This document shows, piece by piece, positions 1 through 4,465 of a DNA stretch of 12,678 bases; the first letter of the stretch is position 1; each line of letters opens with the position of its first letter. Source of the DNA: a virus. Taxonomy: Duplodnaviria > Heunggongvirae > Uroviricota > Caudoviricetes. The notes under the pieces were generated by a model. It was not told where the DNA came from. It worked only from the letters and a program-made list of their open reading frames with translations, and made no database searches. Location of the stretch: the IMG/VR virus record IMGVR_UViG_2778261246_000007. The stretch is one strand, 5' to 3'. Position numbers and translations under genes: made by a program.

Positions 1-141
1 TTACTGCTTACACTGTAAGAACGCCGCAAACTCCGCTCCCCAGAAGCTCATCCGTATTTCGCACAGCGAACCGTGCAGCATCCAGATGATGAGGATTGCC
101 GTCACGCAGAACGTGATGGCCGTAAGCGATTTTTGCGACAT
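1..141 (-). CDS. Hok/Gef-family type I toxin (small membrane peptide), 46 aa
   Basis: Reverse-strand ORF (ATG at 139-141, TAA at 1-3) translating to MSQKSLTAITFCVTAILIIWMLHGSLCEIRMSFWGAEFAAFLQCKQ. It has a hydrophobic N-terminal helix followed by SLCEIR and E-x-AAFL-x-CK, the Hok/Gef signature as I recall it (HokA-like). AAGGAG Shine-Dalgarno lies 8 nt upstream (rc of 150-155). The 8..271 ORF in the track is a different frame overlapping this gene, in the position of a mok-like reading frame. Confidence 0.6.
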   Translation of the reverse strand: MSQKSLTAITFCVTAILIIWMLHGSLCEIRMSFWGAEFAAFLQCKQ

Positions 142-331
142 AGCACTTGCTCCTTTTCAGGAGAGGCGCTAACCTTTCACTTGTCAAGGTAATGCGGTTA
201 GGGCCTCGGTTAAACAGAGATGTTTTCCGGGGCCTTTCCACATCTGGCCTTCGGGTATTCCCTCCGACCATCAGCCGAAAGGCACCCGCGCGTAATCTAT
301 CGCTTTTTTGTTACTCCGGCAATTCTGCTCG

Positions 332-592
332 TTAATTCTGAGATAAGGGCAAACTCATCTGATTGTTCCCCCTGTGTGAAGCTGGCAGAGCCTGCCACGG
401 TATGTCTTCTGAAGAATGAACTTCTGAGGTGTGTTTTGATGTGAACTTATGAAAAGCTTCCAGTGTTGAGAAGCATACGCCGCATTCCAGGTTATTACAC
501 TGGTAATACTTTTGCCGCACGGTGTTTGAGTCATTTTCCGGACGACTGGTGCGGATACGGGCAGACGCGCCACAAAGTGGACAACGGAACAT
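332..592 (-). CDS. ogr: Ogr/Delta-family zinc-finger late gene transcriptional activator
   Basis: 86-aa ORF MFRCPLCGASARIRTSR...YYQCNNLECGVCF with the C-x2-C...C-x4-C arrangement and ARTSR motif of P2 Ogr. Strong SD AAGGGAGG 5-6 nt upstream of the ATG (rc of 593-610). Confidence 0.88.
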   Translation of the reverse strand: MFRCPLCGASARIRTSRPENDSNTVRQKYYQCNNLECGVCFSTLEAFHKFTSKHTSEVHSSEDIPWQALPASHRGNNQMSLPLSQN

Positions 593-1016
593 AGCGACCT
601 CCCTTAACGTGGTGTTTCTATTATTCTAAGTTGTACTAATACTGATTCCAACTAACTGCTTGCTTTGAGTGAAAACCAGAAGTTTGCAGTTGAATTTTCA
701 CTGAGTAAGTAGTCGAGATTGACTATGCACTAGTAGGATTATTCTACGTGATTGAAGGCAACTTGTTGGTATGTAGATGATTTTACTGGTGGCAGTGTTG
801 TAAGTTTTTATCTCCCCGGTTTGTCTTTGACGCTATCTACTAGTTATTTAGTCGTGCTAAAATAAAACGCTGATTGAGTTCCTTTGGGTTAGGTTGATAA
901 CTCTCAGAGACTTTGGGAGGTGTAAGATTCGAACTTAATCGCTAAGTTTCATACTCTTGGCACTCGTTTGCCTCTACAAAAGTATGTTTTTTAACACAAA
1001 TAAAAGAAGTGCATTT

Positions 1017-2429
1017 ATGAGTATTCAACATATAAAAGTTGGCAGTATATCAGAAATTATTGATCTATCATCTAATTCTGGCGAGCATGCTGATTCTCAT
1101 CCTTTTATCCTCTCGAAGAACTGTGTATGGGGAGAACAGGGGGCAGAAATATCAATTGAGAAATTGCGCCAAAATATTGAGCCCTGGCTAACAGCTCTCT
1201 TCCAATCAGAGCATTTAAATTTATTAATCGGTGCAGGCTTAAGCTCGGCTATTCAAAAATCAGCTACAGGTTTATCTCCAGTAGGGATGGGGTGGATTAA
1301 TGATTTAAAAGTATGTAAAAGCGAAATAGATGAATTTTCCACTCAGGCTGCAAAAGCTGCAGGTCGCGACAGAGGAAATATAGAAGACCAAATTAGAACT
1401 ATCAATGAACTTATTAAAGGTCTCGAAATTTTAACGGTGTTAAATACTCCTCAACCAGAAAATCCGCCACCTCCTTATTCTGCTTATAGAAACTTAAAAG
1501 CAGACTTGGGCGAGCTCAAAGGCGAGCTTTCTAGATGCTTGGGGGAGTTTTCTAAATCTATAATTAAAGGAGAATATTTAATCAAAACTGCTGAACCAGC
1601 CCGGAAAGAGGAAACTTTCAACTATCTAGTTAGTTTTTTGATGAGCTTTGCAAGTAGAACTGCCACTCGCGATAGGCTACATATCTTTACAACAAATTAT
1701 GACCGTATTATTGAAGTGGGTGCTGAGCTTGCTGGTTTAAGACTTATTGATCGCTTTGTAGGAAGTATTGCTCCAGTATTTCGATCCTCAAGATTAGAAG
1801 TTGATTATCATTATAATCCTCCTGGAATCCGTGGTGAACCAAGATACTTGGAGGGCGTGGCACGTTTTACTAAACTTCATGGTTCCCTTGATTGGCATGA
1901 ACAAAATAATGCGATTAGGCGCTTTGGCTTACCCTTTGGAGCACGTTCTGTTGAGCCGTTTTTGGAAGCCGAAGGTCATCAAAGCAATGGCTATGAAAAA
2001 CTGATGATTTACCCTAATTCAGTAAAAGACAGAGAAACAGCCGAGTATCCTTATGTTGAGCTATTTCGAGATCTGGCAGCAGCAACTAGCCGTCCAAATA
2101 GCACATTAGTCACTTATGGTTATAGCTTTGGTGATGAGCATATCAATAGAGTAATTGAAGACATGCTTACGGTACCTTCCACTCATATAGTAATAATAGC
2201 CTTTGGCGATCCACTTGGCAGAATTATGCGTTTCATTAGTAATAGTGGAAGAAAAGCACAGATCACCCTTTTAATGGGAGATCATTTAGGAGACTTCAAA
2301 ACTTTAGTTGATAACTATTTACCTAAACCAGCTATTGATAAAGCATCAATCAAGATGGCAGAGTTGCTCAAACAAAGAGGCTTTATGCAGTTCAAAGAGT
2401 TAGGTAATTCAGCCGAAGTTGAGGTATGA
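1017..2429 (+). CDS. SIR2-like (SIR2_2/DUF4020-type) NAD-binding protein, predicted NADase effector of a SIR2-HerA system
   Basis: Motifs read directly from the translation: LLIGAGLS (nt 1221-1244, GAG Rossmann motif), FTTNYD (nt 1686-1703), KLHGSLDW with HGS (nt 1878-1886). Start is ambiguous: ATG 1017 is preferred (MSIQHIK...), alternatives are TTG 957 and ATG 984; none has a strong SD. The TGA stop at 2427-2429 overlaps the downstream start region. Confidence 0.82.
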   Translation: MSIQHIKVGSISEIIDLSSNSGEHADSHPFILSKNCVWGEQGAEISIEKLRQNIEPWLTALFQSEHLNLLIGAGLSSAIQKSATGLSPVGMGWINDLKVCKSEIDEFSTQAAKAAGRDRGNIEDQIRTINELIKGLEILTVLNTPQPENPPPPYSAYRNLKADLGELKGELSRCLGEFSKSIIKGEYLIKTAEPARKEETFNYLVSFLMSFASRTATRDRLHIFTTNYDRIIEVGAELAGLRLIDRFVGSIAPVFRSSRLEVDYHYNPPGIRGEPRYLEGVARFTKLHGSLDWHEQNNAIRRFGLPFGARSVEPFLEAEGHQSNGYEKLMIYPNSVKDRETAEYPYVELFRDLAAATSRPNSTLVTYGYSFGDEHINRVIEDMLTVPSTHIVIIAFGDPLGRIMRFISNSGRKAQITLLMGDHLGDFKTLVDNYLPKPAIDKASIKMAELLKQRGFMQFKELGNSAEVEV

Positions 2430-2431
2430 CA

Positions 2432-4465
2432 ATGAGTTATTTACCAATAGAAAAAATAGAACAACTAAGAATTGGAACTGTTGAGTTTGTATCACCTAAT
2501 GAAATTAGGGTGTCTTTAGAGATTGATTCTCCTGATTCAGTATCACTTCAAGGTGGGGCGCCTCGTAATTTTCCTAGAATAAATAGTTATATTTTAATCC
2601 GTAGTGATGACGGGTTTCTTGTTGGGCAAGTTGAGTGGATTGCAATAGAAAACTCGCCATATCCCAAAAGAAGAGGCTTACAAGATTTTGGGTTGATAGA
2701 CCTTCCTTTCCCACTTAAAAAGCTCAGTATCAATCCAGTTGGTACATTGAGAGTTGATAGAAAAAACGAAGGTTTCAGGTTCACGAGAGGAACTGATGCT
2801 TTCCCTTCGGTTGGTGACTCTGTGCTTTTGCCTACTGACCGACAATTACAATCAATAATTGAATCAGGTGATAATAGAAGGGTAAAAATAGGGGATAGCC
2901 CCCTAGCTAACAATGCTGAAATAAAAGTAGACCCCGATAGACTTTTCGGACGACATATAGCTGTTTTAGGTAATACGGGTAGTGGTAAATCATGTTCGGT
3001 GGCCGGCTTAATTCAATGGTCTCTTGATGCTGTTTTACAACAGGGAAAATCTCCAAATGCTCGATTTATAATACTTGATCCGAACGGAGAATATAGTAGA
3101 GCTTTAGGGCCAGAATCAAGATATAAGGGTAAACTATTACGTGTAGAGGCTAACATCGATGTCGGAGAGATGGATCTTAAAGTACCTTCATGGTTATGGA
3201 ATAGTTCTGAGTGGGCTGCTTTCACTCAAGCAAGTTCAAAGGTGCAACTTCCTTTACTACGTCGTGCTTTGAGGGCAATGAGGAATAATCTTCTATCAGA
3301 AGATGATGTGAAAATTCAAGCCAAACGCTTTTGCGGTATCCTTCTTGTATCTATGAGACAGCAGGCAAGTCAAGGTCAGATATATGTGAATAGTGGATCT
3401 GCTAAAGGTTTGGTTGAAACTTTGGGTTCTTGGAGAGATAGTATTTCTATCTTAAACGAGAGAATTGTTGATAAATCGCTCGATAAGCTAATAAACACAA
3501 TAAATACGTATCTTTCTTCACGAAGTGGATCTTCTTGGCCAGCAAAGCCTGTTGTTTCCGAGATTGAGTTGTTGATTAATGGATTTAGAGATGCATATAC
3601 AGCTCTAGGGGGAGATGAACAAGAACTTCTTCCAAAAAGCGAAGATGCGCCTATGCGTTTTAAAGGCGATGATTTTGTCGCATATCTCGAAGCTCTGGCT
3701 CAAGAAACAGGTACAGAACAATTCGTGGAGTTTCTTTTGACTCGTATTCGAACAATGCTAGGTGACACTCGTATTAGTGCAGTAACCAATGATTCTGTAA
3801 AGCCTATAAGTTTAACTAATTGGTTAGACACTTTTCTCGGTAAAAATGAACAAGGATCTATAACTGTTATAGATTTATCTCTAGTACCAAATGAAATAAT
3901 TCATTTGGTAACAGCTGTAATTTCTAGGGTGGCTTTTGAAGCACTACAACGTTATCGAAGATTAAATGGAAGGCCGCTACCAACAGTTTTAGTTGCAGAA
4001 GAAGCGCATACGTTTATTAAACGTTACAAGGAAGATAGTGAAACTCAGTCAGTCTCTGATATATGTTGCAAGGTGTTTGAAAAGATTGCACGGGAAGGAA
4101 GAAAGTTTGGGCTAGGCCTTGTTGTTTCTTCCCAAAGGCCATCAGAGCTATCTCCGACGGTTTTATCTCAATGTAATACTTTTTTGTTGCACAGGATTAG
4201 TAATGATAGAGATCAAGAGCAAGTACATAGACTTGTTCCAGATAATATGAGAGGGCTGTTGAGAGAGCTGCCATCGTTACCATCTAGGCATGCTATTTTA
4301 CTTGGATGGGCTTCAGAACTTCCTGTTTTAGTTAGAATGAAAGAGCTTACTGAAAAACAACGACCGCAATCTGATGATCCTGATTTTTGGGATGTGTGGT
4401 CTGGCACTACAAAAGAACCTCGGAAAGTTAATTGGCAACAGATAGCTGATGATTGGCAAAGTTGA
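2432..4465 (+). CDS. herA: HerA-family (FtsK/HerA superfamily) P-loop ATPase, partner of the SIR2 protein
   Basis: Walker A GNTGSGKS (nt 2969-2992), ILDPNGEY motif, Walker-B-like VLVAEEAH (nt 3986-4009), VVSSQRPSEL, and about 170 residues before the P-loop where HerA proteins have their HAS-barrel. ATG 2432 has GAGG 7 nt upstream; the alternative ATG 2426 overlaps the SIR2 stop as ATGA. Confidence 0.88.
   Translation: MSYLPIEKIEQLRIGTVEFVSPNEIRVSLEIDSPDSVSLQGGAPRNFPRINSYILIRSDDGFLVGQVEWIAIENSPYPKRRGLQDFGLIDLPFPLKKLSINPVGTLRVDRKNEGFRFTRGTDAFPSVGDSVLLPTDRQLQSIIESGDNRRVKIGDSPLANNAEIKVDPDRLFGRHIAVLGNTGSGKSCSVAGLIQWSLDAVLQQGKSPNARFIILDPNGEYSRALGPESRYKGKLLRVEANIDVGEMDLKVPSWLWNSSEWAAFTQASSKVQLPLLRRALRAMRNNLLSEDDVKIQAKRFCGILLVSMRQQASQGQIYVNSGSAKGLVETLGSWRDSISILNERIVDKSLDKLINTINTYLSSRSGSSWPAKPVVSEIELLINGFRDAYTALGGDEQELLPKSEDAPMRFKGDDFVAYLEALAQETGTEQFVEFLLTRIRTMLGDTRISAVTNDSVKPISLTNWLDTFLGKNEQGSITVIDLSLVPNEIIHLVTAVISRVAFEALQRYRRLNGRPLPTVLVAEEAHTFIKRYKEDSETQSVSDICCKVFEKIAREGRKFGLGLVVSSQRPSELSPTVLSQCNTFLLHRISNDRDQEQVHRLVPDNMRGLLRELPSLPSRHAILLGWASELPVLVRMKELTEKQRPQSDDPDFWDVWSGTTKEPRKVNWQQIADDWQS

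Follow-up and report, generated by a model that had tools for sequence, protein, structure and literature searches.

The textbook hok/mok/sok circuit is that of the hok/sok (parB) locus of plasmid R1, the mechanism of which has been summarised previously (PMC9841398). As cited in another paper, R1 hok/sok also gives protection against phage T4 when carried on a high-copy plasmid. A prophage-borne member of the same group, hokW-sokW of the Stx2 prophage Sp5 (E. coli O157 Sakai), has been proven to be a toxin–antitoxin system of type I, and its activity is RNase III- and Hfq-dependent (PMC8621323). A recent survey deals with the toxin side (Escalera-Maurer et al., bioRxiv 10.1101/2025.08.07.668861). 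It describes hok as enriched in prophages, provides a logo of the positions that over 80% of the 1264 Hok peptides have in common, and reports that 42 of 45 assayed Hok homologs are toxic, the three non-toxic ones being 19_179, 60_1482 and 69_1540. One of its entries, 72_1621 (construct LRP137), belongs to cluster 72, which is listed as a "high-abundance cluster" (Table S2 of the same survey).

The locus analysed here occupies one end of a stretch of 12,678 nucleotides, hereafter the window, from the IMG/VR virus record IMGVR_UViG_2778261246_000007. It is very probably a complete hok/sok type I cassette that constitutes a moron of a P2-like (P88-like, Xuanwuvirus) prophage, near ogr at the prophage end; this prophage is inserted at the ihfA terminator of E. 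coli. The locus as such is already known, since it is annotated by RefSeq and belongs to a recently catalogued Hok subfamily; a literature search for hok beside ogr in P2-like prophages returned nothing specific. The finding matters little beyond correct annotation, with one possible exception that concerns mok. The features discussed below are collected in Table 1, in which a window position equals the position in the source-genome sequence (L001) minus 6000, so that negative numbers lie beyond base 1.

Table 1. Position of the toxin gene, of the RNA elements and of the neighbouring activator gene
Feature	Window position	Strand	Basis and remarks
hok-type toxin CDS, 46 aa, MSQKSLTAITFCVTAILIIWMLHGSLCEIRMSFWGAEFAAFLQCKQ	1..141 (ORF 141..1; stop 3..1)	-	ORF list; Pfam; PHROG
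hok Shine-Dalgarno AGGAG, 8 nt before ATG	150..154	-	sequence; GGAG in 53/54 variants
Hairpin burying the Shine-Dalgarno (CUCCU/AGGAG) in a GCGC.../...GUGC stem	142..171	-	-12.3 kcal/mol, z -2.9
mok-like overlapping ORF, 87 codons	8..271	-	ATG 271; in-frame GTG 241, ATT 193, TTG 187
Hairpin noted earlier	202..234	both	(-) ucb/GAGG stem-loop of hok mRNA; (+) body and terminator of the predicted Sok
ucb-like box AAAGGCCCC	229..237	-	constrained folds; structure line of the Rfam model
mRNA 5' end and tac element GGGUGCCUUU	278..287	-	+1 taken as G287; Rfam model position 1 aligns at 287
hok mRNA, part within the window	1..287	-	total about 408 nt, another 120 nt past base 1
Predicted hok promoter: -35 TTGCCG (322-317), 17-nt spacer, -10 TAGATT (299-294)	294..322	-	inferred from position and conservation
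Predicted Sok promoter: -35 TTGCTC (147-152), 17-nt spacer, -10 TAACCT (170-175)	147..175	+	inferred
Predicted Sok-like antisense RNA, about 60 nt	183..243 (end near 241-245), ends approximate	+	fold, conservation
fbi box AAGGCACCC	-57..-65 (L001 5943-5935)	-	complementary to 5' end GGGUGCCUU
hok terminator	-86..-120 (L001 5914-5880)	-	source-genome sequence; terminator scan
ogr/Delta-type zinc-finger late activator	332..592	-	Pfam PF04606 52.6 bits; RefSeq annotation

Toxin peptide and prophage setting

The original prediction assigned the 46-residue ORF to the Hok/Gef family, with a hydrophobic helix and a good Shine-Dalgarno sequence, and profile searches bear this out. The peptide matches Pfam PF01848 (HOK_GEF) above threshold, with 29.9 bits for a gathering score of 22 (E 4.1e-7) over profile positions 5-42 of 42, as well as PHROG 251 (80.6 bits), which is designated "MokW-like host killing" in phage databases. 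The RNA leader of the gene also matches an Rfam model, as detailed below. The helix corresponds to a single predicted transmembrane segment at residues 6-22 (Kyte-Doolittle mean 2.44), and the Shine-Dalgarno sequence is the AGGAG listed in Table 1. RefSeq labels the gene "Hok/Gef family protein" (WP_000078916.1), and no PADLOC model matched the 46-residue peptide. Two more precise names were considered and rejected: HokW, which is a different 51-residue peptide, and HokA, the best NCBIfam model (NF007290), for which the score of 34 bits lies far under the equivalog cut-off of 89 bits.

The Hok family is recognized by C-x-T in the transmembrane helix, L-C-E, an E ten residues further on and a C or Y close to the C-terminus. 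Every conserved position of the survey logo is found in the peptide, M1, C12, T14, L26, C27, E28, E37 and C44 being the equivalents of logo positions M1, C16, T18, L30, C31, E32, E41 and C48. In E. coli, Shigella, Salmonella and Klebsiella there are relatives with 59-98% identity, and among 31 relatives neither C27 nor C44 varies. The coding sequence has 15 variable columns across 20 loci that encode exactly this peptide, and 14 of these columns fall at codon position 3, which argues for purifying selection on the peptide. The window peptide is exactly that of survey entry 72_1621, and it would thus be toxic by elimination, this entry being among the 45 assayed homologs and not one of the three non-toxic ones.

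Comparisons at the nucleotide level were made on 94 homologous loci, reduced to 54 unique leader-plus-CDS sequences of 73-100% identity. Since the 80 loci retrieved from IMG/VR all encode the same peptide, diversity was added from other contigs encoding relatives and from one Stx phage. A profile search of genome contigs with the peptide alignment yielded six loci, and the organism names given for three of these are unlikely. Assemblies under the labels Planococcaceae, Vagococcus and Xanthomonas pisi (L004, L005 and L008) indeed contain nearly identical cassettes, on contigs that are short or unrelated; these copies most likely stem from contaminating enterobacterial DNA.

The window is 100% identical to part of several E. 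coli chromosomes, such as that of strain C3 (NZ_CP010119.1), and represents the end, close to ogr, of a P2-like prophage that is a relative of phage P88 (Xuanwuvirus). The 46-residue ORF and ogr lie on the minus strand, followed by plus-strand genes for SIR2 and HerA, after which come gpD, again on the minus strand, and the tail genes. Base 1 of the window falls at the hok stop codon, and about 120 nt of the locus lie beyond it; the end of the 3'UTR hairpin, the fbi box and the terminator are thus outside the window and were read from the source genome. Many other viral contigs of IMG/VR (L014, L016, L020 and about 45 more) likewise end exactly 3 nt past the hok stop codon. This boundary is an artefact of gene-boundary trimming, and because it removes fbi and the terminator, RNA-level analyses of such contigs see a truncated locus.

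The toxin had been placed at the presumed prophage end, which left two readings, a host gene or a moron. Its position as the last gene before ihfA, together with the many automated prophage calls that stop at the hok stop codon, would fit a host-encoded gene lying outside the prophage. Against this, the sequence shared by genomes devoid of the prophage is limited to the ihfA side and stops at L001:5738, at the terminator. A 21-bp direct repeat, GGCCGCTCTGCGGCCTTTTTT, which forms the att core, coincides with the ihfA terminator (L001:5714-5734) and recurs past the integrase gene, before btuC (L003:28795-28815). The end of the hok terminator lies 145 bp inside this repeat, and the cassette likewise occurs in the genomes of the P2-like phages P88, Chuche, PhiR44_2 and others. 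A host origin has therefore practically no probability left: the cassette is prophage-borne, and the question is settled in favour of a moron.

The distribution of the cassette also bears on whether it is still functional. Of 5426 complete E. coli genomes, 1555 contain it, with up to seven copies. The layout D-ogr-hok-att-ihfA is conserved in a prophage of Salmonella that occupies the same ihfA site and encodes a Hok peptide 61% identical, and 933W-type Stx phages have, besides hokW, an 80%-identical cassette downstream of lom. An inactive relic, comparable to the decayed chromosomal copies reported for several hok loci of E. coli K-12, looks most improbable in this context. The weakness of the promoters relative to the consensus, described below, would agree with decay. 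The abundance of the cassette, its presence in sequenced phages, the synonymous-only variation among loci with the identical peptide and the toxicity deduced by elimination all speak against it, as do the RNA elements, which are all intact and co-vary.

Several observations concern the surroundings of these cassettes. The 933W copy (L098 601-958; NC_000924.1 45508-45865) is unannotated in the reference record. Within the window, positions 957-4465 (plus strand) encode a SIR2 (PADLOC SIR2, 515 bits) and a HerA (838 bits), which form a SIR2-HerA anti-phage pair. This insert has a GC content of 37-41%, compared with about 53% in its flanks; it separates ogr from gpD, whereas P88 lacks it and has ogr directly adjacent to D. 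The proximity of the hok cassette and SIR2-HerA fits the notion of a prophage end gathering host-killing and defence cargo, as a single example and with no functional link implied. Elsewhere in the same prophage (L003 19034-21626), a Phd/Doc type II toxin-antitoxin pair and ParM/partition-type plasmid segregation genes adjoin a gene for a ClpX-type zinc finger, which is unusual cargo for a P2-like prophage.

Architecture of the hok mRNA and of the predicted antisense RNA

Rfam model RF01794, named "sok", aligns over its full length to positions 287..128 of the minus strand (50.2 bits, E 4.8e-10, below the gathering score of 59). On an R1-type plasmid locus, the match of the same model (87.2 bits; L097 532-703, plus strand) is to the hok strand, with the hok ATG as its end point. 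It thus models the hok mRNA leader, and the minus-strand match in the window therefore corresponds to the orthologous leader, with a +1 position at about 287. Although called "sok antitoxin", RF01794 marks the toxin leader, and the strand of its matches has to be read accordingly.

The predicted hok promoter begins right at the ogr stop codon. Its -10 hexamer (TAGATT, TAGAAT or TAGAGT) is kept at a constant distance from GGGTGCC across different upstream contexts. A consensus promoter scan picked up neither the hok promoter, which lies below threshold, nor the Sok promoter; both are weak matches, and both calls are consequently made from position and conservation only. The ends of the hok mRNA and of the Sok-like RNA are, like the two promoters, predictions from the sequence.

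The 408-nt RNA folds with a predicted energy of -180 kcal/mol (z -8.4), and nucleotides 1-15 are paired with the fbi region in the minimum free energy structure. RNAalifold analysis of 29 homologs, from +1 to fbi, gives 96 consensus pairs. In an independent count over the same homologs, 97.8% of the cells are paired, compared with 37-46% when the partners are slid, and double compensatory changes are observed in 20 pairs, compared with 2-7 in the slid controls; none of 500 shuffles did as well as the observed covariation values. The tac element does not vary among the 29 sequences, and each of them joins it to fbi through seven base pairs (GGGUGCC/GGCACCC) that are 100% paired. This helix shows no double compensatory change among the 29 sequences, with only one-sided changes from G-C to G-U. 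The 3'UTR hairpin, which precedes fbi and the terminator in the source-genome sequence, displays changes from G-C to C-G and from G-C to A-U.

The internal elements of the leader are equally recognizable. The hairpin at 202-234 had been noticed as a long imperfect structure in the presumed mRNA leader, and it turns out to be the ucb/GAGG stem of the hok mRNA, with GAGG at 207-204 (minus strand). Its two helices (helices 5 and 6 of the consensus) are 98-100% paired, with one double change from C-G to U-A. Its folding energy is -21.1 kcal/mol (z -4.6) when read on the plus strand, compared with -14.2 kcal/mol (z -3.2) for the minus strand, and none of 200 shuffles folded equally well. The ucb-like box has two alternative partners, GAGGCC in the closed form and the 5' tac element in the open form. 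The hairpin burying the Shine-Dalgarno sequence corresponds to helices 8 and 9 of the RNAalifold consensus (97-99% paired), and in the open conformer its 5' arm, GCCUC (167-163), pairs with GAGGC as a dcb-like element. The full R1-type RNA architecture is thus present and supported by covariation, with the tac-fbi closure, the ucb/GAGG stem-loop, the sequestered Shine-Dalgarno sequence, the 3'UTR hairpin and the terminator.

A further conserved long-range helix associates window positions 135-122 with 35-22 (mRNA nucleotides 153-166 with 253-266). It joins hok codons 1-5 to the A-E-F-A-A codons near the C-terminus through 12 pairs, 100% paired in the 29 sequences, and probably accounts for the nucleotide-level invariance of these AEFAA codons.

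Constrained folds provide insights into a possible switch between conformations. The tac-ucb open conformer is the minimum free energy structure of the isolated leader. Its cost is 3.7 kcal/mol in the full-length RNA and falls to 0.4 kcal/mol in the 3'-trimmed RNA, the minimum energy structure of which keeps the closed ucb/GAGG hairpin, the open form lying just above. These energies are consistent with, and not proof of, the conformational switch described for R1 (PMC9841398).

An antisense Sok-like RNA was also expected on the plus strand, and a candidate can now be placed at about 183-243 from the conserved promoter hexamers and the hairpin. The hexamers with their 17-nt spacer (TTGCTC-17-TAACCT) are found in 49 of the 54 variants, with TATCCT in one; they are weak and escaped the scan, and their relative position is the same as in R1-type loci. 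The predicted RNA has a folding energy of -26.4 kcal/mol (z -4.0) and would consist of a single-stranded 5' tail (183-199), the hairpin (201-235) and a UUUCCAC tail. The 5' tail is the most variable portion across the variants. The hairpin is kept in 18 variants according to alifold analysis, its upper stem being swapped in one group for another pair of complementary arms.

The overlapping mok-like frame

The longer ORF overlapping hok had been likened to mok. As regards the frame relation this analogy stands: the frame of ORF 271..8 is one base ahead of the hok frame, and the relation of mok to hok in R1 is the same. The analogy does not extend to the conservation of the ORF or to its start. 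Its product has no match in Pfam, NCBIfam or PHROGs. ATG 271 lies only 17 nt into the mRNA, within the tac region, and is replaced by CTG in divergent members, and most variants carry a UGA at +80 in the mok frame. In 19 of the 54 variants, no leader ORF in any frame starting with ATG, GTG or TTG extends to the hok Shine-Dalgarno sequence, P88, the copies from Stx phages and the members from Salmonella and Klebsiella being among these 19. The start of mok in R1-type and hokW loci lies 3-11 nt past GAGG. None of the 54 variants has an ATG, GTG or TTG at this canonical position after the conserved GAGG. Because the ORF is not conserved among close relatives and the canonical start is missing, mok is treated here as unconfirmed, and one step of the R1 mechanism may therefore not apply.

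These observations raise the possibility, which we regard as tentative, that hok translation in cluster 72 is uncoupled from the overlapping mok frame. Sok would then act through RNase III cleavage, through the RNA conformation, or through the short leader ORF that it overlaps, which starts at AUG 243 (mRNA nucleotide 45). Besides the absence of the canonical start and the frequent UGA, the fact that the 19 variants without a leader ORF still keep an intact, conserved Hok argues in this direction, and hok has a strong Shine-Dalgarno sequence of its own. Several points oppose such an uncoupling. In the window variant, the -1 frame is open, and both GTG 241, with an SD-like GAAGG 6 nt upstream, and TTG 187, which falls inside the Sok-complementary region, are available as starts. 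A non-canonical start at ATT 193 is possible as well. The leader ORF from AUG 243 is found in about 50 of the 54 variants, but it ends variably, with a length of 8-79 codons; it is therefore not claimed as a conserved substitute for mok. In R1, mok mutations abolish Hok synthesis (PMC9841398), and the survey authors themselves call Mok prediction unreliable (bioRxiv 10.1101/2025.08.07.668861).

It is thus conceivable, if rather doubtful, that the widespread, phage-borne cluster 72 has dispensed with canonical mok, control being exerted by the RNA switch together with the Sok duplex, or by a short and variable upstream ORF. If true, the mok-less cluster 72 would be a mechanistic variant of the textbook circuit. 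The missing canonical mok start, which is mildly unexpected, is the sole point of this analysis that is potentially new on hok regulation.

Proposed function and comparison with known systems

The sequence of events can be proposed mostly by homology with R1 hok/sok. An mRNA of about 408 nt would start at about 287 and be closed by its 5' tac (GGGUGCC) and 3' fbi (GGCACCC) elements, the hok Shine-Dalgarno sequence and first codons being buried in conserved helices. As in R1, slow 3' trimming would strip fbi, after which the 5' end would switch to ucb, making the mRNA both translatable and open to the antisense RNA. The unstable, constitutively made Sok-like RNA of about 60 nt would pair with mRNA nucleotides 43-105, again as in R1, and this pairing would stop expression and direct RNase III cleavage. 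Should Sok not be replenished, upon prophage loss, shut-off of transcription by an infecting phage or prophage induction, Hok would be made and would insert into the inner membrane, and the cell would be killed or lysed, by analogy with R1.

The role for the prophage is most likely addiction and/or abortive-infection-type defence, with help in lysis as an alternative. According to this alternative, the cassette would serve mainly in the lytic cycle, Hok being made on prophage induction for faster lysis and release, as for hokW-sokW of Sp5. The latter raises phage release about two-fold after mitomycin C (PMC8621323). The gene arrangement could be compatible with such a role, since hok lies directly downstream of ogr on the same strand and late read-through could raise the amount of hok mRNA. 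A mainly lytic function nevertheless appears unlikely: HokW belongs to another Hok cluster (HokD-like, 51 residues) and to a lambdoid phage, and the cassette has promoter-like elements and a terminator of its own. P2-like phages of this type are, moreover, generally not SOS-inducible.

Among the known systems, HokA (NF007290) shares with the window peptide the direct encoding of both cysteines, with no need for TadA editing, whereas the bit score already mentioned sets the two peptides apart. The closest relative in terms of peptide is Hok cluster 72 (72_1621 and 72_1589; Escalera-Maurer et al.), 72_1621 being identical. The survey deliberately excluded Mok, Sok and the mRNA structure and did not describe the position between ogr and att (bioRxiv 10.1101/2025.08.07.668861). 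The hokW-sokW locus is also a prophage-borne hok/sok cassette in moron position. It differs in its toxin, HokW being a HokD-like peptide of 51 residues (MKQQKAM...) of the 60%-identity cluster 35_712, as compared with 72_1621, and in its leader, where an AUG lies 8 nt past GAGG (primer YO-592), with no such codon here. In addition, the window-type cassette forms a locus of its own in Stx phages, the second one besides hokW, and lies there downstream of lom.

One R1-type locus deserves a remark of its own. On plasmid pMTY1886_IncFII (L097 644-859), the mok ATG shares the hok frame, and an uninterrupted Mok-Hok of 71 residues results; RefSeq annotates only a shorter Hok piece.

R1 hok/sok (parB) itself differs in several respects. 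The peptide has 46 residues here, compared with 52, and both cysteines are hard-coded; the leader measures 146 nt instead of about 168 nt; no start codon follows GAGG, canonical mok being missing or displaced; and the cassette is carried by a prophage, whereas that of R1 is on a plasmid, with an Rfam score of 50 here, below the gathering score of 59 bits. Other features are shared. Both loci encode a Hok-family peptide behind a leader that aligns to the same Rfam model, and both mRNAs are closed by a 5' tac and a 3' fbi element, with a 3'UTR hairpin followed by fbi and the terminator. In both, the ucb/GAGG stem-loop doubles as the body of the antisense RNA, predicted as such here, the open form, likewise predicted here, contains a GAGGC/GCCUC (dcb) stem, and the Sok promoter, again a prediction in the window, is embedded beside the hok Shine-Dalgarno sequence. 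The alternate frame is one base ahead in both cases, and stops a few bases before the hok stop codon.
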